Notes: a model not told the origin generated them from the letters alone. A DNA stretch of 64,000 nucleotides from Candidatus Omnitrophota bacterium (GCA_025453395.1 JALOQK010000002.1:85625-149624); one strand, 5' to 3'; positions 5,676 to 55,839 are shown, counted from the first letter of the stretch. Program-made: numbers and translations.

Positions 5676-6284
5676 ATGATCGGGATTATTGATTATAATA
5701 TGGGCAATATCCATAGCGTGAATAAAGCTATTCAGGCTATGGGCGAGGATACTTTTGTCGCCGTAACTGCTGAAGGGCTTGACAGGTGTTCTAAGATTAT
5801 TCTGCCTGGAGTGGGCGCTTTTGATGACGCCATGGAGGAATTAAATAAAAAAGGTTTCACTAATCCGATAAAAGATCTGATTGCCAAGGGAAAGATTTTC
5901 TTGGGGATTTGTTTAGGCATGCAGCTTTTATTGGAAAAAAGCCAAGAGGCAAAAAAGAACAAAGGAATTGGCGTTATCAAGGGAGAGGTGAAGAAATTTT
6001 CTCCCTCTTTAGGCTTAAAGGTCCCGCATATGGGGTGGAATAATCTTAAGCCATTACAAAACGTCTGCCCCCTGTTTAAAGGCTTAGACCATAAGGCCCA
6101 GGTCTATTTTTGCCATTCTTACTATGCCTGCCCTGATGATAAAAAAGTAGTTGCTTCTACTACTGATTATGGAGTGGATTTTGCCTCGGTTATCTGGAAG
6201 GATAATATTTTTGGCGTGCAGTTTCACCCGGAAAAAAGCCAGGAGGCAGGTTTAATCATCTTGAAGAACTTTATAAGTTTATAG
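5676..6284 (+). CDS. hisH: imidazole glycerol phosphate synthase, glutamine amidotransferase subunit
   Basis: 202 aa class-I glutamine amidotransferase with GICLGMQ catalytic Cys and C-terminal HPE. Confidence 0.93.
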   Translation: MIGIIDYNMGNIHSVNKAIQAMGEDTFVAVTAEGLDRCSKIILPGVGAFDDAMEELNKKGFTNPIKDLIAKGKIFLGICLGMQLLLEKSQEAKKNKGIGVIKGEVKKFSPSLGLKVPHMGWNNLKPLQNVCPLFKGLDHKAQVYFCHSYYACPDDKKVVASTTDYGVDFASVIWKDNIFGVQFHPEKSQEAGLIILKNFISL

Positions 6285-6488
6285 AAATAGTTTTAAGTAG
6301 TATAGTAATATATCATTTAGCTAAAAACCATAATTAAAAATTCAAAGTTTTAAATTTTACGCTGTGATTTTACGTTTTGCACTTTTAGCTTTACATTATA
6401 CAATGTATTTTTAATTTTACGCTATAGTTTTACGCTTTTCGCTTTACGCTTTTAGCTTATAACTTATAGCTTACAGCTTACAGCTAAT
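6285..6488. repeat. intergenic repeat element, copy A of the ~66 bp unit family (TTTTAATTTTACGCTATAGTTTTACGCTTTTCGCTTT..CAATGTATTTTTA), about two units plus an AGCTTACA octamer tail
   Basis: Near-identical units are also present at 8942-9136 and 10949-11070. Confidence 0.85.
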
Positions 6489-7211
6489 ATGCTAATTATC
6501 CCAGCAATAGACATTAAAGACGGCGCGGTAGTCAGGCTCTTGCAGGGCAAGTTTGACAAGAAGACTGTTTATTCTAAAGATCCGCTTAAAACCGCGAAGC
6601 ATTGGCAAAAACAGGGCGCCAGCGTCATTCATATTGTTGACCTTGACGGAGCAAACAGCGGGCAGTCTGTAAATTTGCCGATTGTCAAAGAGATTGTGAA
6701 AAATACAGAAGTAAAGATAGAGTTTGGCGGAGGTTTGCGCAGCCTAAGGGCGATAGAAGCAATTCTTGATGCTGGAATTTGGCGGGTGGTTTTGGGGACT
6801 CGCGCTGCCGAGGATAAAGAATTCCTTAAAGGCGCCTTTTCTAATTTTAAAGATAAGGTTATTGTCAGTGTTGATGCTAAAGACGGCGAAGTCTTAACCC
6901 GCGGCTGGGAAAAGCACAGCGGAATTACAGTCTTGGATTTTGTTGCCCAGTTAAAGGCAATAGGTTTTAAAAATTTAATCTTTACGGATACCTCTAAAGA
7001 CGGTATGCTAAAGGGGCCTAATCTTAAGGCGGTCAAAGAGCTTCTTAAAAAAAGCGGGCTAAAGATTGTGGCTTCCGGAGGCATAACCGCGCTTTCGGAT
7101 CTGGTGAAATTGCGCGCCCTAGAAAAAGACGGCGTGGAAGCTGTTATTATTGGCAAGGCCTTGTATGAGGGGAAGTTTACATTACAACAAGCGTTAAGAA
7201 GTCAAAAGTAA
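6489..7211 (+). CDS. hisA: 1-(5-phosphoribosyl)-5-[(5-phosphoribosylamino)methylideneamino]imidazole-4-carboxamide isomerase
   Basis: 240 aa (beta/alpha)8 HisA protein, N-terminus MLIIPAIDIKDG; its last codons lie in the AAGTCAAAAGTAAA repeat array. Confidence 0.92.
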   Translation: MLIIPAIDIKDGAVVRLLQGKFDKKTVYSKDPLKTAKHWQKQGASVIHIVDLDGANSGQSVNLPIVKEIVKNTEVKIEFGGGLRSLRAIEAILDAGIWRVVLGTRAAEDKEFLKGAFSNFKDKVIVSVDAKDGEVLTRGWEKHSGITVLDFVAQLKAIGFKNLIFTDTSKDGMLKGPNLKAVKELLKKSGLKIVASGGITALSDLVKLRALEKDGVEAVIIGKALYEGKFTLQQALRSQK

Positions 7212-7253
7212 AAAGTCAAAAGTAAAAAGGTAAAAGTAAAAAGTAAAAGACAA
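7197..7253 (+). repeat. tandem array of 14-mer (AAGTCAAAAGTAAA-like, 2x7) x4, overlapping the hisA stop codon
   Basis: Read directly from the sequence; the same AAGTCA-type heptamer recurs inside hisF. Confidence 0.85.
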
Positions 7254-7300
7254 AAAAAATAAATCGTGAAAATAAAACTCTACAAAAAGGAGAGGGGAAT

Positions 7301-7768
7301 ATGAGAAAAGTTTTAGGTTTGGGGTTAGCATTAGTGGGTGTTTTAGCTTTAAGCGGCTGTTCCACAGTCTGCAGAAAACAAGTTAATCAGATAAATGAGC
7401 TAAAAAGCCAGGTGTCTTCGCTAAAATCAGAAATACAGTATAAGGATGATCAGATAACCCAGCTGCGTTATTCTGTTAGTCAGGCGCCGAGTGAAAAGTT
7501 TGTTGCGTCGCAAGCCGCGGTTTCTATGGGGGCAGCTATTCCTGAAGTGAAATCCCGCCCTAAGGCAAAGCAGATACAGGCTGCCTTGAAGAATGCTGGC
7601 TATTATAACGGGCCCGTTGATGGGAAAATCGGCAAAAGGACAAGAAAAGCTATCCGCAACTTTCAGAAAGATAATGGCCTGCAGGTGGATGGCAAAGTCG
7701 GCAAGGATACTTGGGCAAAGCTAAAGAATGCTCCGGAAAAGAAAGTAAGCGAGCAGAAAGTAAAATAA
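7301..7768 (+). CDS. lipoprotein with C-terminal peptidoglycan-binding (PG_binding_1-like) domain
   Basis: Signal peptide plus lipobox LSGC, a coiled-coil middle, and a C-terminal segment (YNGPVDGKIGKRTRKAIRNFQKDNGLQVDGKVGKDT) typical of PG-binding domain 1. Confidence 0.7.
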   Translation: MRKVLGLGLALVGVLALSGCSTVCRKQVNQINELKSQVSSLKSEIQYKDDQITQLRYSVSQAPSEKFVASQAAVSMGAAIPEVKSRPKAKQIQAALKNAGYYNGPVDGKIGKRTRKAIRNFQKDNGLQVDGKVGKDTWAKLKNAPEKKVSEQKVK

Positions 7769-7795
7769 GAGTTCAGCTTTCAGTCGTCAGCCTTC

Positions 7796-7836
7796 AGCTG
7801 ATAGCTGATAGCTGATAGCTGATAGCTGATAGCTGA
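7796..7836 (+). repeat. heptanucleotide microsatellite (AGCTGAT)x5 plus a partial unit, intergenic
   Basis: Perfect tandem heptamers read directly from the sequence. Confidence 0.95.
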
Positions 7837-7841
7837 AAAAC

Positions 7842-8615
7842 ATGTTAACTAAACGTATTATTCCCTGTTTAGACATCAAAGACGGCAGGGTAGTCAAGGG
7901 CGTGCGTTTTTTGGGGCTTCGCGATGCCGGGGATCCTGTGGAAGTGGCCCAGGCCTACGATAAACAGGGCGCGGATGAATTAGTATTTCTGGATATTACC
8001 GCGAGTTTTGAGAATCGCAAGACGCTGGTTTCTCTGGTAGAGAAAATCGCGCAAAATATCTATATGCCTTTTACTGTTGGAGGCGGGATAAGAAGCATTG
8101 AGGATATACGCGATCTTTTAAATGCCGGCGCAGATAAGGTGTCCATAAATACTGCGGCAGTAAAATTTCCTGATCTAGTTAGCGATTCGGCCAGGCGTTT
8201 TGGCAGCCAGTGTATAGTAGTAGCGATAGACGCGAAGTCAGAAGTCAGAAGTCAGAAGTCAGAGGTTAGAAAGTGGGAAGTGTATATAAACGGGGGAAGA
8301 ACTCCCACCGGCATTGACGCGGTAGAATGGGCAAAAAAAGTAGAAGAAGCAGGCGCCGGAGAAATACTTCTAACCAGTATGGATTATGACGGCACAAAAG
8401 ACGGCTATGATCTAAAGCTGACAAAGGCGGTCACAGGCGCAGTTAATATTCCGCTAATTGCTTCAGGAGGCGCGGGTACTTGTGAGCATATAAGCGATGT
8501 TTTTTTAAAGGCTGGCGCGGATGCCGCTTTAGCAGCTTCTGTTTTTCATTATCAGGAATTAACCGTGAAACAAGTTAAGCAATATTTAAGAACGAAAGGC
8601 GTAGCAGTAAGATGA
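7842..8615 (+). CDS. hisF: imidazole glycerol phosphate synthase cyclase subunit
   Basis: 257 aa HisF; carries a repeat-encoded insertion [13 protein letters not shown] in the loop before WEVY. Confidence 0.93.
8235..8269 (+). repeat. heptanucleotide microsatellite (GAAGTCA)x4 plus a degenerate unit, in-frame inside hisF
   Basis: Read directly from the sequence. Confidence 0.9.
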
Positions 8616-8941
8616 ATAAAAAATTGTACTTGAAAGATCTGAAATTTGATGATAAGGGTTTGATTCCGGCGATTGTGCAGGATTATAAGACTAATGAAGT
8701 CTTGATGGTGGCTTATATGAATTTGGAGTCTGTAAAAAGAACACTAAAGTCCGGCAAGACTTGCTTCTGGTCGCGTTCGCGTAAAGAATACTGGGTCAAA
8801 GGCATGACTTCCGGGCATTTCCAATTTGTAAAATCCGTTTGGTATGATTGCGATATGGATGCGCTTTTGGTAAAGGTGCGCCAGGTGGGCGCTGCCTGCC
8901 ATACAGGGAACAGGTCGTGTTTTTATAGGAGAATCAAGTAA
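8612..8941 (+). CDS. hisI: phosphoribosyl-AMP cyclohydrolase
   Basis: 109 aa with the CHTGxxSCF zinc motif. Confidence 0.9.
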
Positions 8942-9136
8942 GCGAAAAGCGTAAAGCGAAAAACGCAAAACCATAATTTAAAATTCAAAATTTTTAATTT
9001 TACGCTATAGTTTTACACTTTTCGCTTTTAGCTTTACACTCTGCAATGTATTTTTAGTTTTTAATTTTGCACTGTAGTTTTACGTTTTTCGCCTTTAGCT
9101 TTACACTCTGCAATGTATTTTTAGTACTCTTAAGAT
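8942..9136. repeat. intergenic repeat element copy B: GCGAAAAGCG-rich arm, AAAATTCAAAATT motif, then two tandem ~66 bp units
   Basis: Units at about 8993-9058 and 9059-9124 are near-identical; the upstream arm is a reverse-complement match to the TTTTCGCTTTACGC cores. Confidence 0.85.
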
Positions 9137-10642
9137 ATGTATTCTCTCACATTCAAAGAATTCTTAAAGCTGTCGCGCCGGGGAAACGTTATTCCTATAT
9201 ATAAGGAAATAAACGCTGACCTTGATACGCCTGTTTCTGCCTATTTAAAGATTGCAAGCGGGGATTTTTCTTTTCTTCTTGAATCTGTAGAAGGCCAGGA
9301 GAAAATAGCGCGTTATTCTTTCTTGGGGGCCAACCCTGCGCTTGTCCTGCGGGCCTATGGCAAAAAGATCCAGATTATTGATAAGGGCAGGGCATCTTCT
9401 AAAAGATTTACCGCTTCTAAAGACCCCCTTGATGAAATACGCCAGATCATGCAAACTTTTAAGCCGGTGGCTATAAAAGAACTGCCGCGTTTTTCCGGGG
9501 GGATGGTCGGTTTCATGGGTTATGATATGGGCAGGTTCTTTGAGAATATACCGGATAAAAATCCTGATAAGTTAAATCTTCCCGACATGGTATTTATGCT
9601 TACCGATACCATTCTTATTTTTGACCACGTTCGGCATACGATTAAGATTGTGGCGAATGTGATTTTGCCGGACAAGAAAAATCCTAAAGCCAGGTTAACC
9701 AAGCTTTATAAGAATGCGCTTAATAACATTACGCAGATGCATAAGCGTTTGAATCAACCGCTTGCTGGCAAAGAAATGGAATTCTTGAATTGCGCAAAGA
9801 AAGTCAAAGTTTCTTCTAATTATAAAAAGAGCGAATTCCAGGATATGGTTAGAAAAGCCAAAAAATATATTCGCGCCGGAGATATTATTCAGGTGGCTTT
9901 ATCTCAAAGGTTCAGCCTTGCCTTGTCCGGGCAGGCATTTGATGTCTACCGCAGGCTGCGCGGGATCAATCCTTCGCCGTATATGTTTTTTTTGAAATTA
10001 GATGATATTTCTTTGGTGGGCGCTTCTCCGGAACTTTTAGTGCGTTGCGAAGACGCAATTATACAGACCCGCCCCATTGCCGGGACAAGGCCAAGAGGCA
10101 AGAACGAAGAAGAAGACAAAAAGCTGGAAGAAGAATTGCTTAATGACGCCAAGGAAAAAGCCGAACATATTATGCTGGTAGATTTAGGAAGAAACGATCT
10201 GGGCCGTGTGGCAAAATCCGGCAAAGTCCAGGTCAGTCAGCTTATGAAGGTGGAGCGTTATTCGCATGTGATGCATATTGTTTCTGAAGTAAAGGCCTTG
10301 TTGGATGAGAAATTTGACGCCTATAGCGCCCTGCGGGCCTGTTTCCCCGCCGGGACAGTTTCCGGCAGCCCCAAGGTAAGAGCCATGGAAATTATTGATG
10401 AACTTGAAAACACCCGCCGCGGGCCCTATGCAGGCTGCGTGGGGTATTTTGGGTTTTCCCAGAATATGGATACCTGCATCACTATACGCACTATTGTAAT
10501 TAAGCAAAGAACATGCTATATTCAGGCAGGCGCCGGGATCGTAGCGGATTCCCGGCCTGAAAAAGAGTATTATGAAACTGTAAATAAGGCTAAAGCTTTG
10601 ATTGAAGCAATTAGTGTAGTCACTTGCCAGAGGCAAGTGTGA
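9137..10642 (+). CDS. anthranilate synthase component I family enzyme (TrpE/PabB-type chorismate-utilising)
   Basis: 501 aa with the conserved C-terminal chorismate-binding domain (GAGIVADS, PYAGCVGYF). Confidence 0.85.
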   Translation: MYSLTFKEFLKLSRRGNVIPIYKEINADLDTPVSAYLKIASGDFSFLLESVEGQEKIARYSFLGANPALVLRAYGKKIQIIDKGRASSKRFTASKDPLDEIRQIMQTFKPVAIKELPRFSGGMVGFMGYDMGRFFENIPDKNPDKLNLPDMVFMLTDTILIFDHVRHTIKIVANVILPDKKNPKARLTKLYKNALNNITQMHKRLNQPLAGKEMEFLNCAKKVKVSSNYKKSEFQDMVRKAKKYIRAGDIIQVALSQRFSLALSGQAFDVYRRLRGINPSPYMFFLKLDDISLVGASPELLVRCEDAIIQTRPIAGTRPRGKNEEEDKKLEEELLNDAKEKAEHIMLVDLGRNDLGRVAKSGKVQVSQLMKVERYSHVMHIVSEVKALLDEKFDAYSALRACFPAGTVSGSPKVRAMEIIDELENTRRGPYAGCVGYFGFSQNMDTCITIRTIVIKQRTCYIQAGAGIVADSRPEKEYYETVNKAKALIEAISVVTCQRQV

Positions 10643-10683
10643 ATCAGGCATAAACGCCAGAGGCCTGCCTGATTCAAAAAAAG
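10641..10683 (+). other. 10 bp perfect stem-loop (GAATCAGGCA..TGCCTGATTC) followed by an A7 tract immediately 3' of trpE-family gene
   Basis: Seen in sequence; it has no U-tract on the + strand, so it is not a canonical + strand terminator. Confidence 0.4.
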
Positions 10684-10696
10684 GAGGAAAAAAGAA

Positions 10697-10948
10697 ATGG
10701 CAGTTAATGTAAGGTTAAGAAGAATAGGAAAAAGGCCCAAGAACCGGGCGCATTTTAGAATTGGCGTTTATGACCAGAGAAGAGGCAGAGATGACCGGCC
10801 TATCGAAGAAATAGGTTTTTATAATCCCGGATCCGGGCAGATCAAGATTGATCTTGAGCGTTTAGGGTATTGGGTGAAAAACGGCGCTCAGCTTTCTAAT
10901 ACGGTCGCCAGCATTTTTAAAAAACAATCAAAAGCAGTTAAAGCATAG
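10697..10948 (+). CDS. rpsP: 30S ribosomal protein S16
   Basis: 83 aa with a typical S16 N-terminus (MAVNVRLRRIGKR). Confidence 0.93.
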   Translation: MAVNVRLRRIGKRPKNRAHFRIGVYDQRRGRDDRPIEEIGFYNPGSGQIKIDLERLGYWVKNGAQLSNTVASIFKKQSKAVKA

Positions 10949-11070
10949 AAGCGCAAAACGCAAAGCGAAAAATTTAAAACTATAATTCAAAATTAAAAAG
11001 TTTTTAATTTTACGCTATAGTTTTACGCTTTTCGCTTTTAGTTTTACGCTAACGTTAAGGAGGATGTTAA
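10949..11070. repeat. intergenic repeat element copy C (GCAAAACGCAAAGCGAAAA arm, AAAATTCAAAATT motif, one truncated ~66 bp unit)
   Basis: Shares a unit of 50 bp or more with copies A and B. Confidence 0.85.
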
Positions 11071-11071
11071 T

Positions 11072-35874: not shown

Positions 35875-36708
35875 ATGGGTATAAAAAAATTCAGGCCCAC
35901 AAGTCCGTCACGGCGCTGGATCACTGGTCCGGATTTTACTGAGATTACTAAGGATTATCCCGAGAAGTCGCTTGTAACTGTTTTAAAGAGGACAGGCGGC
36001 AGAAATTCAAGCGGCCGTTTGACTGTCAGGCACCAGGGTGGCGGGCACAAACGTAAATTGCGCTTGATTGATTTTAAGCGCGATCTTTTGGATAAGCCGG
36101 CAAAAGTCCTTGCTATTGAGTACGATCCGAATCGTTCGGCAAGGCTGGCTTTAGTTGAATACCAGCCAAACCAGAAAAGATATATCATCGCTCCTCTAGG
36201 ATTAAATGTGGGAGATCAGATTGTTTCTTCAAATGACAAAGAAACAGAAATCAAGGTTGGCAATTGTTTGGTTTTGCGTTATATCCCTTCAGGCACGCTC
36301 ATTCATAATATTGAAATCCGCCCGGGCAAAGGCGCGCAGATTGTAAGAAGCGCTGGTTCAAGCGCGCAGATTATGGCCAAAGAAGGCGATTACGCGCATG
36401 TGCGTTTGCCTTCAGGCGAAGTGCGCTTAATAAGTTTAGACTGCCATGCGGTTATTGGGCAGGTGGGCAATGTTGAGCATGAAGCCATTTCTGTTGGCAA
36501 GGCCGGCCGTTCCCGTTGGATGGGTATTCGCCCGACAGTAAGAGGATTAGCCATGAATCCGGTTGACCATCCGCATGGCGGAGGCGAAGGAAAATCAGGG
36601 CAGGGTAATCCTCATCCAGTGTCCCCATGGGGCCAGCCGACTAAGGGTTACAAAACCAGGAAACCAAAGCGATATTCTAATAAATTTATAGTTAAAAGAA
36701 GAAAGTAA
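35875..36708 (+). CDS. rplB: 50S ribosomal protein L2
   Basis: 277 aa L2 with the conserved C-terminal block ([14 protein letters not shown]). Confidence 0.96.
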
Positions 36709-36711
36709 TTT

Positions 36712-36800
36712 AAAATTAAAAATGAAAAATCTAAAATTAAAATCTTTAGGAAATGGTTTTAAGGTAAATTTTGAATTTTTACTTTTTAATTTTGAATTTC
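36712..36800. mobile_element. ~89 bp AT-rich miniature inverted-repeat element (MITE-like): left arm AAAATTAAAAATGAAAAATCTAAAATTAAAAT, right arm reverse complement GAAATTCAAAATTAAAAAGTAAAAATTCAAAATTTAC, no cargo
   Basis: Imperfect ~30 bp terminal inverted repeats read from the sequence; sits in a 135 bp rplB-rpsS spacer of the S10 operon. Confidence 0.45.
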
Positions 36801-36843
36801 AACGAGCGTCTTTTAGTTTAATAAGTGTAAAAGCGAGGAAGAC

Positions 36844-37131
36844 ATGCCGCGTTCATTAAAGAAGGGCCCGTATATTGACGAGAAATTATTAAAGAAAGTT
36901 GACCGCGCGCGCCGCTCGGGGCAGCGCACCGCGATAAAGACCTGGGCAAGGCGTTGCACGATCACCCCGGATTTTGTGGGCCTGACTTTTGCTGTGCATG
37001 ACGGCCACAGGCATTTACCGGTTTTTGTCACCGAGAATATGGTAGGGCATAAATTAGGGGAATTCGCTCCCACCCGCGTATTTCGTAAGCATGGCGGGGT
37101 TAAAGCCAAAAAAGCAGCGGAAAAGACTTAA
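36844..37131 (+). CDS. rpsS: 30S ribosomal protein S19
   Basis: 95 aa S19. Confidence 0.95.
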
Positions 37132-37154
37132 AAATAATATAAAAGGATAAAAAC

Positions 37155-43050: not shown

Positions 43051-44421
43051 ATGATAGCTAATACCTTTAACTTCAGCCCATTAATCAACAGCTTTCGCAT
43101 TCCGGATCTAAAAAAGCGCCTTTGGGTTACTCTGGGCCTTTTGGCTGTTTATCGCATGGGTTGTTATTTGCCTATTCCCGGGATTGACGGGATAGCGTTA
43201 GCGGAATTTATCAGTCAAATCTCCAAGTCTTCTGGTGGAGCGCTCTTTGGCATTATTAATATGTTTTCCGGCGGCGCCATGGAGAGGCTGACCATTTTTG
43301 CTTTGGGGATCATGCCGTATATCTCCAGCTCCATTATTTTGCAGCTTTTGACTGCGGTTATCCCGGCATTAGAAAAGCTGGCCAAAGAAGGAAAAGCCGG
43401 TTATCAAAAAATAAATCAGTTTACCCGTTATGGAACGGTAGTCTTGGCAGTTATACAATCATTTTTTATCGCCAAGTGGCTTGAGGGTTTGGGCAGGACC
43501 ATGCAGGATATGCCCAAGATTGTTTTAGCTCCGGGCTTGGGTTTTGAACTTTTAACAGTTTTAACTCTTACTACCGGAACGATTTTCTTGATGTGGCTGG
43601 GCGAGCAGATACAGGAGCGCGGCATCGGTAACGGCATATCGCTTGTTATTACAGCCGGTATTGTCTCGCGTATCCCGGCTGCCTTTCATCAGCTTTTTGT
43701 TTTATTGTCGCCCTTTAATCCCACTCGGCGGCAGCTGCAGCCGGCGGTATTACTGCTGATGGTTTTTCTTTTAGCGGCGGTAGTTTTCGCGGTTATACTT
43801 GTTACCCAGGGGCAGAGAAGGATCCCTGTGCAGTATGCCCGAAGAGTAGTAGGGCGAAAGGTTTTCGGAGGGCAGAGCACCTATATCCCCCTTAAGGTAG
43901 ACACATCAGGGGTTATCGCGATCATTTTTGCGCAGTCCATAATACTTTTTCCGGCGACTCTGGCATCATTCATACCGAATCCTGCGTTTCAGGGTTTTGC
44001 GCATGCTTTAACCCGCGGCAATGTCGGGTATTCTATAGTTTACGCTCTTTTAATTATATTCTTCTGCTATTTTTACACCGCGGTTGTTTTTAATCCGGTG
44101 GACTTAGCCGATAACATGAAAAAATACGGCGGGTTTATTCCGGGTATCCGCCCGGGAGTTTCAACCGCGGAATTCTTAGATTACACCATGACCCGTATTA
44201 CTTTGGCAGGCGCGCTATTTATCGCCTTTGTGGCGATATTCCCTGACGCGTTAATGGCATGGCTAAAGGTGCCGTATCTTGTCGCGTCATTTTTCGGCGG
44301 CACAGGCGTTCTTATTATCGTGGGGGTTATGCTGGATACGATCAAACAGCTTGAATCGCATTTGATGATGCATCACTACGAGGGTTTTATCAAAGGCGCA
44401 AGGATTAAGGGAAGAAGATAA
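43051..44421 (+). CDS. secY: preprotein translocase subunit SecY
   Basis: 456 aa with 10 TM segments and conserved SecY blocks. Confidence 0.96.
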   Translation: MIANTFNFSPLINSFRIPDLKKRLWVTLGLLAVYRMGCYLPIPGIDGIALAEFISQISKSSGGALFGIINMFSGGAMERLTIFALGIMPYISSSIILQLLTAVIPALEKLAKEGKAGYQKINQFTRYGTVVLAVIQSFFIAKWLEGLGRTMQDMPKIVLAPGLGFELLTVLTLTTGTIFLMWLGEQIQERGIGNGISLVITAGIVSRIPAAFHQLFVLLSPFNPTRRQLQPAVLLLMVFLLAAVVFAVILVTQGQRRIPVQYARRVVGRKVFGGQSTYIPLKVDTSGVIAIIFAQSIILFPATLASFIPNPAFQGFAHALTRGNVGYSIVYALLIIFFCYFYTAVVFNPVDLADNMKKYGGFIPGIRPGVSTAEFLDYTMTRITLAGALFIAFVAIFPDALMAWLKVPYLVASFFGGTGVLIIVGVMLDTIKQLESHLMMHHYEGFIKGARIKGRR

Positions 44422-44741
44422 AAATTAAAAATTCAAAATTAAAAATTAAGAAATAAAAGCAAAAAGATAAAAGCAAAAAGATAAAAGCAAAAAATATAGT
44501 AGTAAAAAAATTTAGTTATTTGCTCATTGGTAAATCAAATTTTCTTTTAAAGCTCAATAATTATTTATTTTTTATATTCTTAGGTTTTTAAATTTGAGAT
44601 TTTAGGTTTTTGTTTTAATTTTTTATTTTAAATTTTAAATTAACAACAGTGTTTTTTTTGATTTTAATGTTTTCTAATTTTGTTTTTATGTTTTTAATTT
44701 TGCATTTTTCATTTTAAACTTTAAATTAAAGAGGGTTTCTT
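44422..44741. repeat. 320 bp AT-rich noncoding element: left end AAAATTAAAAATTCAAAATTAAAAATT, a 14-mer tandem (ATAAAAGCAAAAAG)x3, right end reverse complement AATTTAAAGTTTAAAATGAAAAATGCAAAATTAAAA
   Basis: Seen in sequence; the ends resemble the terminal inverted repeats of the 36712-36800 element. Confidence 0.45.
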
Positions 44742-51990: not shown

Positions 51991-51991
51991 A

Positions 51992-52062
51992 CACCCGGCG
52001 CAATTTGATGCGCCGGTGCGCAATTATCAGGCAACACCCGGCGCAATTTGATGCGCCGGTGT
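51992..52062 (+). other. two tandem copies (43 bp period) of a GC-rich hairpin CACCCGGCGCA-ATTTGA-TGCGCCGGTG between the dehydratase large-subunit gene and pilT
   Basis: 8 bp perfect stems with 6 nt loops read from the sequence; the second is followed by a pyrimidine-rich stretch. Confidence 0.55.
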
Positions 52063-52086
52063 GCCCTTTCTGGGCAAGGAGGACTA

Positions 52087-53133
52087 ATGGAAATTAGGGA
52101 TCTTTTATTGCAGTGTATTGAAACCAAATCATCAGATCTGCACTTGACTGAAAATGAGCCTCCGCTTTTACGTATTGACGGACGCATCAATCGCACCAAA
52201 AGTAGTATTCTGGGCAGAGACGATCTTAAGAAAATGATCTATAGTATTTTGACCAGCGCCCAGAAAGAAGTGTTTGAGCGCGACCTGGAGCTGGATTTAT
52301 CATTGGCGCTTCCCGGATTAGACAGGTTCCGGGTGAATGTGCATTTGCAGAAGGGTTCTGTGGAAGCAGCCTTTCGCCGTGTGCCTCTGGATATCCCCAG
52401 TATTCAGGATTTGGGCCTGCCGCCAATAGTTTTTGATCTGGCGCGCAAACCCAACGGTTTATTTTTAGTTACCGGGCCAACCGGAGTAGGTAAGACCACA
52501 ACTTTAGCCGCGATAATTGATTTGATCAATTCCGAGCGCGAATGTTTGATGATGACCATAGAAGACCCGATAGAATTTATCCACGCGAATAAGAAAAGCG
52601 TGATCAAGCAGAGGGAAGTTTACGCGGATACGCGTTCTTTTGCCGAAGCGCTTAAGCATACATTGCGCCAGGACCCTAATGTTATTGTGGTTGGCGAAAT
52701 GCGCGATCTGGAAACTATCTCTACAACTTTGACTGCCGCGGAAACAGGGCACTTGGTATTGGCAACTTTACATACCCCTGATGCTCCGCAGACCATTCAA
52801 AGAATTATAGACGTATTCCCTCCGCATCAACAGCAACAGGTTAAATTACAGCTTGCCGACTGTTTGCAAGGAGTTGTCTCGCAGTTATTGCTGCCCAAAG
52901 CTGACGGGCACGGAAGAGTGCTTGCCACAGAGATAATGGTTGCCACCGCTGGTATCCGTAATCTTATCCGCGAGCAGGAAGTTGAGCAGGTCCCGACACT
53001 TATTCAGACCGGGAGCCAATTCGGGATGAAGACCATGGATAAATGTCTGAAAGAATTATTCCAGCAGGGGCTTATTTCTTTGGACACTGCCATGTCTAAA
53101 GTCAAGAACGTGGAAGAATTCAAGCATCTTTAA
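52087..53133 (+). CDS. pilT: type IV pilus retraction (twitching motility) ATPase PilT
   Basis: 348 aa; start MEIRDLL is preceded by an AAGGAGG RBS. Walker A GPTGVGKTTT, Asp box VGEMRD and His box ATLHT are present. The ORF track's 52048 start is upstream and in-frame. Confidence 0.88.
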   Translation: MEIRDLLLQCIETKSSDLHLTENEPPLLRIDGRINRTKSSILGRDDLKKMIYSILTSAQKEVFERDLELDLSLALPGLDRFRVNVHLQKGSVEAAFRRVPLDIPSIQDLGLPPIVFDLARKPNGLFLVTGPTGVGKTTTLAAIIDLINSERECLMMTIEDPIEFIHANKKSVIKQREVYADTRSFAEALKHTLRQDPNVIVVGEMRDLETISTTLTAAETGHLVLATLHTPDAPQTIQRIIDVFPPHQQQQVKLQLADCLQGVVSQLLLPKADGHGRVLATEIMVATAGIRNLIREQEVEQVPTLIQTGSQFGMKTMDKCLKELFQQGLISLDTAMSKVKNVEEFKHL

Positions 53134-53147
53134 AAAGGAGAGTTTCT

Positions 53148-53648
53148 TTGCGTTTAGAAGGAAAGGCCATAAAGTTAGGCGATGATATCAACACGGATTT
53201 TATTATTTCCGGCCGCTACAAATTCGCCATTACCGATATGAAAGAATTGGCCAAGCATATTATGGAAGATATCGACCCAGCATTCCCATCCAAGATTACG
53301 CCCGGTCAATCTATCCTGGTTGCTGGAAGAAATTTCGGCATGGGCTCATCGCGCGAGCAGGCGCCATTGGTAATAAAAGAATCCGGAATAATTGCTGTGG
53401 TTGCTAAATCTTTTGCCAGGATATTTTATCGTAACGCTTTTAATATAGGATTAGCCCTGGTGGAATTGGATACTGATAAAATAAAAGAAGGCGACGCCTT
53501 AGATATTGATTTAGATAAAGGCGCTGCCAGGAATGTTTCATCCGGCGTTGATTTTAAAATCTCCCCCTTGCCGGAATTCATGCAAGCTCTTTTACGCGAA
53601 GGCGGAGTGGTAAATTACGTTAAAAAGTATGGCGAGTTAGAAATTTAG
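53148..53648 (+). CDS. aconitase-superfamily dehydratase small subunit, LeuD/HacB type
   Basis: 166 aa type-2 LeuD-like protein (swivel domain). Confidence 0.85.
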   Translation: MRLEGKAIKLGDDINTDFIISGRYKFAITDMKELAKHIMEDIDPAFPSKITPGQSILVAGRNFGMGSSREQAPLVIKESGIIAVVAKSFARIFYRNAFNIGLALVELDTDKIKEGDALDIDLDKGAARNVSSGVDFKISPLPEFMQALLREGGVVNYVKKYGELEI

Positions 53649-53695
53649 AATTAAAAAATAAAAATTCAAAATTAAAATACAAAATGCTGGTATAA

Positions 53696-54076
53696 TTGCT
53701 AATGGAAAATAAAGGGGCAAGTTTTCAGAGTAATTATGATATAAAAAACAGGACCTACGCTTTCTCGGTTAGTATTGTTAATTTTGTTTCTGATTTACCA
53801 AAAGATAACGCAACTCACATTATTTCTAATCAATTGTTGGCTAGTGCTACAAGTGTAGGTGCTAATGTTATTGAAGCGCAAGCATCAAGTTCACGCAAAG
53901 ATTTTACAAATTTCTTGAATCATTCTTTGAAATCAGGAAATGAGACAAAATATTGGCTATGTTTGTTACGGGATACTGGCAGAGCCGAATATCCTAAAGT
54001 CAGCAAGCTTATTAATGAAGTAACTGAAATTAATAATATACTTGGAAAAAGCATTATTACTTTACGTAATAAGTAG
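53696..54076 (+). CDS. four-helix-bundle protein (TIGR02436-like; '23S rRNA intervening-sequence protein' family)
   Basis: 126 aa; the segment SNQLLASATSVGANVIEAQASSSRKDFTNFLNHSLKSGNETKYWLCLLRD matches the family's hallmark. Confidence 0.75.
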   Translation: MLMENKGASFQSNYDIKNRTYAFSVSIVNFVSDLPKDNATHIISNQLLASATSVGANVIEAQASSSRKDFTNFLNHSLKSGNETKYWLCLLRDTGRAEYPKVSKLINEVTEINNILGKSIITLRNK

Positions 54077-54124
54077 CATTTATGTTTTTAATTTCTAATT
54101 TTTAATTTTTCATTTTTAATTCCT

Positions 54125-55216
54125 ATGCCCTACACCATTACTCTTATCCCAGGCGACGGAATTGGCCCGGAAGTAGCCAGGGCCGCGCAAGCTTGTATTG
54201 ACGCAACCGGTGTTAAGATAAGCTGGGATCAGGCGCAAGCCGGCCAAGACGCCTTAGAGCAATGCGGGGAACTTCTTCCTGAAGCCACCCTTTCATCTAT
54301 CAAAAAAAATAAAATTGCATTAAAAGGTCCGATCACCACTCCTATTGGAAAAGGTTTCCGCTCGGTGAATGTGGCTATTCGTCAGGCTTTGGATCTTTAC
54401 GCCTGCGTGCGTCCGGCAAAATCGTATCCGGGGGTAAAAAGCCTGTATAAAGATATCAATCTGGTGATTGTGCGCGAGAACAGCGAAGACCTTTACGCCG
54501 GTATTGAATTTGAGCAGGGCAAGCCCGAGACCGAAGAGCTTATCAAAAAAATAGATTCCTATAGTGTTAAGAAAATCCGCCCTGATTCAGGCATTTCCAT
54601 TAAACCCATTTCGCTTTATGCCGCCGAAAGGATCGTAAAGTTTGCTTTTGAATACGCCTTGGCAAATAACCGCAAGAAAGTCACCTGTGTGACTAAAGCC
54701 AATATCATGAAATATACCGACGGGCTTTTTCTGGCGGCGGCAAAGGGGGTTGCTCAAAGCTATGAAGGCAGGGTATTATTTGAAGAGGCCCTGGTGGATA
54801 ATATGGCAATGCAGCTTGTGCAAAGGCCGCACTATTATGATGTGCTGGTGCTTCCTAATCTTTATGGGGATATTCTTTCGGATCTTTGCGCTGGATTAAT
54901 CGGAGGTTTAGGAATTGCTCCGGGAGCCAATATCGGAGAAAAGATAGCGGTATTTGAGGCAGTGCACGGCTCTGCTCCTAAATACGCTGGTTTGAATAAA
55001 GTCAACCCTAGCGCGATGATCTTGTCCGGGGTTTTGATGTTGCGCCATCTTGGAGAAAATGAAGCTGCCAACCGCTTGGAACACGCCTTAAGCGCAGTAC
55101 TTAAAGAAGGCAGATTTGTTACCTATGATTTAAAACCGCATCGCGATGACCCTTCGGCAGTGGGCACAAAACAAATGGCAGAAGCGGTAATAAGAAAGTT
55201 ACATGAGGTTACGTGA
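54125..55216 (+). CDS. beta-decarboxylating dehydrogenase of the isocitrate/homoisocitrate/isopropylmalate family; substrate-site motif [18 protein letters not shown] resembles the isocitrate/homoisocitrate type more than LeuB
   Basis: 363 aa with [10 protein letters not shown] and a Ser-containing substrate loop. Confidence 0.8.
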
Positions 55217-55222
55217 GGTTAA

Positions 55223-55660
55223 GTGATGTTACATCAGGTTGCTAAAAGCACAGTATCAAAAACAGCGCCTTATGAAAAACTCAAGTTTTATCAGGATATT
55301 TGCCAGATTCGCAAGTTAACCTATCAAATAACAGAGAATATTGTTCGTTCACATATGCGTTTAGCTTCTCAGATGAGAGATGCCGCGCGTTCTGCTAAGC
55401 AAAATCTAAGAGAAGGATATCGCAAAGGCACATTAGGAGAATTTATACATAGCATAAAGATAAGTCAGGGGTCTTTAGCAGAGTTAAGTGGCGACATGGA
55501 AGATTGCTTGGAAGACGGTATTATTCAGAAAACTGATTTTGATATTTTTATGAAGCTTTATCGTAGTGCAGACTATATGTCAAATAGGTATTTAATTTCG
55601 TTATATAAGATAGAAAAAGAAGGCACATGGCGCACTTTCGCTAAGCGTAGTGCTAAATAG
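55223..55660 (+). CDS. four-helix-bundle protein (TIGR02436-like), second paralog
   Basis: 145 aa (YEKLKFYQ.., GSLAEL..) of the same family as 53696-54076. Confidence 0.7.
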   Translation: MMLHQVAKSTVSKTAPYEKLKFYQDICQIRKLTYQITENIVRSHMRLASQMRDAARSAKQNLREGYRKGTLGEFIHSIKISQGSLAELSGDMEDCLEDGIIQKTDFDIFMKLYRSADYMSNRYLISLYKIEKEGTWRTFAKRSAK

Positions 55661-55664
55661 TCTT

Positions 55665-55828
55665 CCTGATTGTTGAATATTGTTTTTGCTCTTTGTTTCT
55701 AAGCAACCTCATTTAACATTATGTAACTTTATGCAACCTCATTTAACCTGATTGTTGAATATTGTTTTTGCTCTTTGTTTCTAAGCAACCTCATTTAACA
55801 TCATGTAACTTTATGCAACCTCATTTAA
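55665..55828 (+). repeat. 82 bp direct tandem duplication (2 copies, 1 mismatch) plus a partial third start; each unit contains two GCAACCTCATTTAAC sub-repeats
   Basis: Read directly from the sequence. Confidence 0.95.
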
Positions 55829-55839
55829 CCTGATTTTCT

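Follow-up and report, generated by a model that had tools for sequence, protein, structure and literature searches.

Heptanucleotide-built inverted repeats in operon spacers of an Omnitrophota bacterium and their likeness to the arms of PF05635 gene cassettes

What kind of element occupies the spacers that follow hisH, hisI and rpsP in a 64-kb stretch of Omnitrophota DNA (the window; all coordinates are counted from its first letter)? A sequence-only reading had placed a family of tandem-unit repeats with inverted symmetry in these three spacers, at 6285-6488 (locus A), 8942-9136 (locus B) and 10949-11070 (locus C), and had proposed REP/BIME-like elements, a small RNA family or arrays of protein-binding sites as candidates. 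Our analysis pointed to a different relative. The three loci are probably the form without an open reading frame (ORF) of a cassette that resembles the intervening sequences (IVSs) of rRNA, that elsewhere carries a gene of the PF05635 family (IVP/S23p) between arms of the same type, and that would be transcribed by read-through, cut by RNase III and turned over rapidly.

All three loci were confirmed at the coordinates given, and the genes upstream of them are those named earlier. Locus A follows a hisH-like class-I glutamine amidotransferase ORF (5676-6284) and precedes hisA, locus B lies between the PRA-CH gene hisI (8612-8941) and trpE, and locus C lies between the gene for ribosomal protein S16, rpsP (10697-10948), and yajC. 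All three belong to one repeat family, in which a T-rich arm (T-arm) of approximately 50 nt is composed of degenerate 7-nt units (heptads) around a conserved 26-nt core. At loci B and C an inverted A-rich arm (A-arm) lies 5' of the T-arm, and at loci A and B the T-arm is tandemly duplicated as a unit of approximately 67 nt. The parts of the loci are as follows.

6319-6347, no strand assigned: locus A, partial A-rich arm core (AGCTAAAAACCATAATTAAAAATTCAAAG) without GCG-type outer heptads (sequence, inverted-repeat and motif searches).
6348-6407, + strand: locus A, T-arm unit 1 (family D2; nhmmer E=7e-12).
6408-6488, + strand: locus A, T-arm unit 2, continuing into GCTTATA/GCTTACA heptads up to the hisA start codon (nhmmer E=2.5e-12).
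8941-8990, no strand assigned: locus B, A-rich arm from the hisI stop codon onward (76% complementary to both T-arm units; weak reverse-strand T-arm match).
8991-9057, + strand: locus B, 67-nt unit 1, a T-arm plus a 26-nt extension (tandem, direct-repeat and nhmmer searches).
9058-9125, + strand: locus B, 67-nt unit 2 (Tandem Repeats Finder; array of 5.8 units in a JGI assembly).
10950-10999, no strand assigned: locus C, A-rich arm beginning 1 base past the rpsP stop codon (inverted repeat, RNA fold).
11001-11050, + strand: locus C, T-arm, followed by a Shine-Dalgarno (SD) sequence and the yajC start (inverted repeat, RNA fold; nhmmer E=1.4e-12).

That the units form a single family, as had been proposed, was supported by several searches. 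Tandem Repeats Finder reported the 67-nt unit at 8991-9125 (2.0 copies, 91% matches) and period-7 rows in all three spacers, a direct-repeat search joined positions 6348, 6408, 8991, 9058 and 11001 into one family (D2; 74-90% identity), and a 30-mer derived from the unit occurred three times with at most 3 mismatches, compared to 0 times in 100 shuffles. Period 7 was also the top autocorrelation period in each spacer (0.51-0.56), in agreement with the phased heptads noted earlier; these read TTTTACG, TTTTCGC and TTTTAGC and are degenerate, not exact copies. The leader motif said to be common to the three loci fared less well. This 26-nt motif ('AAAACCATAATT...') was found within 3 mismatches at loci A and B only (0 in shuffles), and the version at locus C has diverged (AAAACTATAATTCAAAATTAAAAAG). 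Because the units are contiguous, with start-to-start distances of 60-67 nt that equal the unit length and no unique spacers, the loci are not CRISPR arrays, as the sequence-only reading had stated. Altogether the window holds five T-arm copies in the three loci and about six other heptad elements.

The leu operon of the same window contains two PF05635/TIGR02436 genes, which encode IVP/S23p proteins ('four helix bundle protein'). Both are flanked by inverted arms of short tandem sub-repeats, and the closest solved structure is 2RLD, which has five chains. The two full cassettes, identified by gene and repeat searches, are given below.

53638-54125, + strand: full cassette 1, between leuD and leuB; heptad A-arm 53638-53688, PF05635 gene IVP1 53702-54076, heptad T-arm 54075-54125.
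55198-55835, + strand: full cassette 2, 3' of leuB; decamer-repeat left arm 55198-55264, PF05635/TIGR02436 gene IVP2 55223-55660, right arm within an 82-nt x2.1 repeat 55665-55835.

The arms of IVP1 are 51 nt long, built of heptads and 78% complementary. Those of IVP2 are 67 nt long and built of 10-nt sub-repeats, with the right arm tandemly duplicated (82 nt x2.1, 98% matches); this period of 10 instead of 7 was the sole exception among the 19 IVP genes that we sampled.

IVP genes of other genomes were bracketed in the same manner. Every IVP gene examined in Omnitrophota, Planctomycetota and the candidate phyla radiation (CPR) lies between inverted heptad arms within an operon, and the cassette typically begins at the preceding gene's stop codon and ends shortly before the next start. 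The following loci all have inverted heptad arms.

L009: trpF-IVP-trpB.
L031: IVP gene after a gene with a faint Sortilin-Vps10 match only; the next gene is on the opposite strand.
L032: ksgA-IVP.
L035: lepA-IVP-lepB.
L037: proS-IVP-mreB.
L057: two IVP genes (1-258 and 1501-1851) around a single epimerase gene on an Omnitrophota-like contig; one also matches the bAvd family PF22296.
L059: ShlB-IVP-TPS.
L061: leuD-IVP-leuB, the same site as IVP1 of the window.

The arms of loci A-C are homologous to these brackets. A profile generated from the T-arm of loci A-C alone matched IVP-flanking arms in other Omnitrophota, at L035 with E=3e-8, at L031 with E=1.4e-6 directly 3' of the stop codon, and at L057, L059 and L061 with E=1e-3 to 1e-5. 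Two alignments (A2 and A3) placed the arms of loci B and C in one family with the IVP-cassette arms of L031, L035, L057 and L061. At L061, furthermore, an ORF-less hairpin follows leuB, and its arms have almost the same sequence as those around the IVP gene located 1.1 kb 5' of it. Among the loci L001-L030, an IVP gene beside canonical T-arm copies was found only at L009, where it lies approximately 700 nt away in a separate cassette.

The association extends to plasmids. A tblastn search with IVP1 returned 32 plasmid records, mostly from Nostoc, Planktothrix and Anabaena, and all 12 of the plasmid IVP genes sampled (Cyanobacteriota, Bacteroidota, Spirochaetota and Chloroflexota) lie between inverted heptanucleotide arrays, such as the (TAATTCG)x4.7 ... 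(AATTACG)x4.7 arrays around an IVP gene of Nostoc flagelliforme. Combined, the sample comprised 19 IVP genes from at least seven phyla (Omnitrophota, Planctomycetota, Patescibacteria, Cyanobacteriota, Bacteroidota, Spirochaetota and Chloroflexota). Arrays flanked both sides in 19/19, and the best local period was 7 or 14 in 18/19. Period matches were 17-28 of 28 compared to a shuffle mean of 12; inverted-repeat scores were 10-38, with shuffles averaging 7.9 and reaching at most 13. Most of these scores lay well above those of shuffles. Within a 50-kb Nostoc plasmid stretch, both IVP genes were bracketed but 0/61 other annotated genes were, and the same stretch contained two ORF-less inverted heptamer pairs. 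IVP genes are mostly co-oriented with the flanking genes. Our literature search, which did not cover subscription journals, found no description of PF05635 genes outside rRNA bracketed by inverted heptamer arrays.

Several further observations were made on the plasmid cassettes. The N. flagelliforme plasmid pNFSY06 (L056, 37400-37534) carries an ORF-less inverted pair, AAATTCA x4.7 / AATTTTG x4.6, with 70 nt between the arrays; the pair lies between annotated sigma-70 gene fragments and may be an insertion that splits this gene. Other plasmid IVP cassettes (L044, L045, L046, L047, L049 and L050) sit within defence or transport operons. Their neighbours include a helicase-related protein and an N-6 DNA methylase, DUF1156 and Swt1 HEPN, and an RND adaptor and permease, and among these cassettes are positions between or adjoining cas1 and cas2. 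The idea that arm length equals five heptads to fit an IVP pentamer was dropped, since Nostocales arrays often have 4.7-4.9 copies and the overall range is 2-24.

The heptad architecture is not limited to loci A-C and the IVP cassettes. Beyond what had been noted earlier, it recurs in at least six other window spacers, and period 7 was the best autocorrelation period in nine spacers, built either as an (AAAANNN)n A-rich arm with an (NNNTTTT)n T-rich arm 3' of it or as a single arm. These elements break up operons that are otherwise closely packed (rplB-rpsS, secY-adk, his and leu), and the stop codon of the upstream gene is often the start of an arm. The spacers and the additional elements are listed here, with no strand assigned.

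Period-7 spacers (autocorrelation): 6285-6488; 7212-7300; 7769-7841; 8942-9136; 10949-11071; 36709-37154 (rpsS starts at 36845, so the real spacer stops there); 44422-44741; 53649-53695; 54077-54124.
7195-7260: A-type heptad array (TAAAAAG/TCAAAAG) over the hisA stop codon, without an inverted partner (tandem, inverted-repeat and period searches).
7772-7837: heptad hairpin (TTCAGCT... / AGCTGAT x5.9) that occupies the spacer before hisF (RNA fold -37 kcal/mol, z -5.7).
36707-36798: AT-only heptad hairpin in the rplB-rpsS spacer, arms 84% complementary (family D6, inverted repeat, RNA fold).
44415-44727: composite heptad element in the secY-adk spacer, an A-arm, approximately 75 nt and an 86-nt T-arm unit x1.9 (family D1, tandem, period).

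Two of these elements are related to the arms of IVP1. The left arm of the rplB-rpsS hairpin (36704-36743) and that of the IVP1 cassette are 85% identical (family D6), and the T-arm of the secY-adk element (44685-44727) has 81% identity with the right arm of that cassette (family D1). Inside hisF, an in-frame heptanucleotide repeat (8234-8271; period 7, 5.4 copies) consists of GAAGTCA x3 followed by degenerate copies; the 12 residues that it encodes appear to fall in a variable loop of HisF. The heptad process seems to act also in coding DNA where 3 x 7 nt preserves the frame. SD sequences were visible at yajC, rpsP and a PG-binding lipoprotein gene, and none was visible at hisA (6489), hisF (7842) and trpE (9137), each of which lies directly 3' of a heptad element.

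Copies of the core were also found in distant genomes. The scan pattern TTTTWAATTTTRCRCTRTRRTTTTAC, which covers all five copies in the window, matched 9 loci in 7 GTDB genomes, all metagenome-assembled, from Pirellulales (3 loci, 2 genomes), Phycisphaerae, Omnitrophota (3 loci, 2 genomes), Patescibacteria and Saccharibacteria, as well as 19 JGI metagenome contigs. It had no match in viral contigs, so nothing points to a phage origin. The copies align in register, with a common module TTTTAAATTTTACGCTATGGTTTTAC followed by heptads, and most are preceded by an inverted arm ending in ...GAAAAACCATAATTCAAAAC. Outside the window the elements lie almost always between co-directional genes, with the canonical T-arm in either orientation relative to them about equally often, and an Omnitrophota mcsB-clpC spacer holds an array of at least four T-arm modules.

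Comparison of related strains revealed rapid change. One orthologous spacer, with flanks 92-95% identical among strains, has three unrelated alleles (no repeat, a partial element, or a full 150-nt heptad hairpin), and the segment that varies begins at the stop codon and ends at the next SD sequence. Conservation relative to the flanks was mixed: the element was 90-96% identical in L017/L023 while the flanks were approximately 79% identical, the T-arm was 86% identical in L022/L027 while the flanks were approximately 100% identical, and in L013/L020/L024 the element was conserved about as well as the flanks. Copy number varied even within one strain. In JGI contig Ga0392394_0000003, which represents the same strain in a different assembly, the locus B array comprises 5.8 units of 67 nt (97% matches; L051 1880-2266) compared to 2.0 in the window, and there is a 21-nt difference at the 3' junction of this locus; over the other stretches compared the two are 100% identical. 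Short-read (Logan) contigs end within loci A and C, as well as within the repeat 3' of the second IVP gene. The repeats are either assembly breakpoints or true variable-number repeats. The count of 1-2 unit copies given earlier holds for the window, but because the JGI count differs and short-read contigs stop in the repeats, it is assembly- or strain-dependent.

The sequence-only reading had further claimed that each locus can fold into a long hairpin. This was so for loci B and C, where 50-nt inverted arms are 76% and 80% complementary, respectively, and lie 0-1 nt apart. The predicted + strand RNA folds were -24.5 kcal/mol (z -4.0) at locus B and -33 kcal/mol (z -4.6) at locus C, and the - strand folds were -39.3 (z -5.9) and -41 kcal/mol (z -6.5). 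RNA folds of locus A and of the second tandem unit of locus B, in contrast, were no better than shuffles.

Known systems share some of these properties. The 23S rRNA IVSs of Leptospira, Coxiella and Salmonella have long terminal inverted repeats that form a stem, a feature present at loci B and C and represented at locus A by a partial left arm only, and the IVS loop may hold a PF05635 ORF. The S23p ORF of the Coxiella IVS adjoins 2-3 tandem heptamers, which precede it and whose number is strain-variable, and RNase III, the enzyme that cleaves rRNA IVS stems, makes its 5' cut at the first heptamer (PMC4990558). CPR rRNA insertions also contain IVP ORFs (PMC11270868), and the sporadic distribution of IVSs has been attributed to horizontal transfer (PMC4990558, PMC11270868). 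Unlike those IVSs, loci A-C lack an ORF, although the sister cassettes at 53638-54125 and 55198-55835 have one, and all copies described here lie between protein-coding genes of housekeeping operons and not in helix 25 or 45 of 23S rRNA. Excision by RNase III is established for the rRNA IVSs and is proposed for the elements described here.

In cyanobacteria, 7-bp STRR (short tandemly repeated repetitive) sequences, to which no function has been assigned, can fold into hairpins in the hupS-hupL spacer (PMC2670836). Loci A-C share their 7-nt tandem units, intercistronic position and hairpin potential, and the inverted heptamer arrays of Nostoc plasmids enclose an IVP gene in some cases and none in others. 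The elements differ from STRRs in that the host is an omnitrophote and not a cyanobacterium, the named STRR consensus heptamers are not present, the heptads are degenerate (AAAANNN/NNNTTTT) instead of perfect copies of a single heptamer, and the 26-nt core is partly non-heptad and common to several phyla. TAACTGA repeats of Beggiatoaceae, Cyanobacteria and Bacteroidetes are likewise intergenic heptamer arrays just 5' of start codons, including those in ribosomal-protein operons, yet they comprise 169 direct sets and one indirect set of one heptamer instead of inverted arm pairs (PMC4679880). MacGregor (2015) reported that genes after TAACTGA repeats also have no visible SD sequence (PMC4679880). 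That paper makes no link to PF05635, and the terms 'four helix' and 'intervening sequence' are absent from it. Hairpin-type miniature inverted-repeat transposable elements (MITEs), among them Neisseria Correia/NEMIS elements, ERIC sequences and REPINs/BIMEs, are small extragenic hairpin repeats within operons as well. Correia elements in mRNA are cleaved by RNase III. The elements described here differ from this group in that neither terminal inverted repeats with defined ends nor target-site duplications were found, that the centre is better conserved than the ends, and that no transposase partner is known.

Taken together, the elements are probably extragenic palindromes whose arms are degenerate 7-nt arrays, (AAAANNN)n then (NNNTTTT)n, round a conserved core, and this forms part of the same favoured reading as the ORF-less cassette. 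By analogy with published rRNA IVS stems, Coxiella heptamers and STRR hairpins, we infer that loci A-C would be transcribed by read-through from the host operon and that their arms would pair imperfectly over about 45-50 bp. The resulting duplex would be cut by RNase III in the same way as rRNA IVS stems, and this cut would separate the flanking cistrons and make the insert tolerable. At the DNA level, slippage would expand, contract and duplicate the arrays, and whole elements would be quickly gained, lost or replaced, so that the family would behave as selfish or nearly neutral DNA, with a possible influence on mRNA processing.

A number of results weigh against this account. The T-arm has no partner in many copies (unit 2 of locus A, unit 2 of locus B, L002, L005, L008, L018, L021 and L030; about seven loci outside the window), and such T-arm-only copies cannot form the hairpin because the partner arm is missing. 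Neither a transposase nor a target-site duplication nor defined termini were observed at the elements, and the centre-weighted conservation is the reverse of that of a typical MITE. The antisense strand folds better than the sense strand at loci B and C. Covariation was weak: 3/22 pairs had double changes across 13 ORF-less hairpins (covariation term +0.62), a test that is uninformative because most pairs are invariant A-U. The sense strand folded better in 11/19 cassettes (Wilcoxon p=0.72; G-U pairs 63 vs 60); with no sense-strand preference in arm pairing, selection on RNA structure is therefore not demonstrated, and the symmetry of this evidence suggests that arm complementarity arises at the DNA level. 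Finally, no rnc gene was found when its signature was looked for within the 64 kb.

Other explanations were weighed against the same evidence. The heptad arrays could be cis-regulatory platforms, as RNA or DNA, for a protein that reads 7 nt (candidates are a cold-shock protein, ribosomal protein S1 or the IVP pentamer) and thereby tune downstream translation or stability, but we regard this as unlikely. The T-arm ends 5-30 nt 5' of the next start codon, and hisA, hisF and trpE lack a visible SD sequence; the same idea was proposed for TAACTGA heptamers 5' of start codons, in a paper that also cites B. subtilis CspB as binding heptamer repeats with one protein per heptamer (PMC4679880). Partnerless T-arm copies are conserved in sequence, and in the most diverged orthologous pair the element exceeds its flanks in identity (90-96% vs ~79%). 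However, the canonical T-arm occurs in both orientations with about equal frequency, a normal SD sequence follows some elements (locus C), no binding protein has been identified, and the near-identical strains L022 and L027 differ in the element, with whole spacers replaced, which looks like turnover and not constraint. Alternatively, the elements might be functionless by-products of mutation, with 7-nt units in AT-rich spacers multiplied through replication slippage, quasi-palindromes made and corrected by template switching, and nothing mobile or selected. Variable copy number, the in-frame heptad triplet inside hisF and the lack of strand bias in pairing are consistent with this, as are surveys cited in the TAACTGA paper, in which heptanucleotides are the most abundant 5-11-nt repeat class in most genomes and are ascribed to polymerase slippage (PMC4679880). 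We nevertheless consider it quite improbable, as slippage leaves unexplained both a specific, partly non-heptad 26-nt core (ACGCTATGG) common to several phyla and the near-exclusive bracketing of one gene family.

Repetitive extragenic palindromic (REP) elements, in their BIME or REPIN arrangements and mobilised in trans by a RAYT (TnpA-REP) transposase, were a candidate of the sequence-only reading, and the resemblance is loose: the elements are extragenic, intra-operon and hairpin-forming, and occur as single, inverted-pair and tandem copies repeated in the genome. Defining REP/RAYT features were not found. REP units are imperfect palindromes of 20-40 nt that have a conserved 5' tetranucleotide and belong to species-specific families; the unit here is a 50-67-nt heptad array that becomes palindromic only when two arms combine, and its core is common to several phyla. 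The homology of the arms is to those of PF05635 genes and not of RAYT genes. A non-systematic inspection of the window and the examined loci, with Pfam run on few ORFs, revealed no RAYT gene. A REP/RAYT origin is thus very unlikely. There is similarly little to recommend transcription signals, either intrinsic terminators/attenuators or internal promoters with the core TTCAAA-N16/17-TATAGT or TATGGT. Hairpins do lie between genes, and consensus promoter matches fall in the core at 8984-9011 and 10993-11021, but neither promoter-like sites (12 vs 10.3 in shuffles) nor terminator-like sites (8 vs 6.1) were enriched in the window, and none of the latter fell inside an element. The AU-rich stems of about 50 bp are unlike the short GC-rich stem and U-tract of an intrinsic terminator, and in full cassettes the IVP gene separates the putative promoter halves. 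The least probable explanation, and one we consider extremely doubtful, is that the elements encode a small RNA or antisense RNA family. The antisense folds at loci B and C exceed the sense folds, but strand preference was not consistent over the 19 cassettes, covariation was weak, and no flanking promoter or terminator was present. At Rfam gathering thresholds nothing but two tRNAs passed in the window, which contains no rRNA, and at E up to 10 the elements matched miRNA-precursor models only (best 32.5 bits vs a threshold of 100), as any long hairpin would. Nothing points to a free-standing small RNA.

Other repeats lie near the leu cassettes. A T2SSE-family ATPase gene (52048-53133) is located between leuC and leuD and is preceded by two tandem 43-nt GC-rich repeats (51991-52076; 84% identical), each with a CCGGCGCA...TGCGCCGG palindrome. 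The Omnitrophota locus L061 has no T2SSE gene at its leuC-leuD site, only an 87-nt spacer with a different GC-rich palindrome.

The elements also have practical consequences: they lengthen the spacers of otherwise compact operons such as S10/spc, his, leu and trp, disrupt short-read assembly and shift in copy number between assemblies. More broadly, and only tentatively, PF05635 (IVP/S23p/Avd-like) genes and inverted heptanucleotide arrays might constitute one widespread cassette, of which rRNA IVSs, STRR hairpins and the spacer repeats of Omnitrophota, Planctomycetota and CPR are states (with an ORF, without an ORF, or as a single arm), and the toroidal IVP protein could read or maintain the arms and might mobilise them. 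If the link holds, the S23p/IVP genes with rRNA IVSs and the cyanobacterial STRR heptanucleotides would be the same object, found from Omnitrophota and CPR to Nostoc. Such a link, which may be undescribed, could unify separate puzzles if it holds at scale, and, if true, it would assign a function both to a protein family and to a class of repeats that have lacked an explanation since about 1990.

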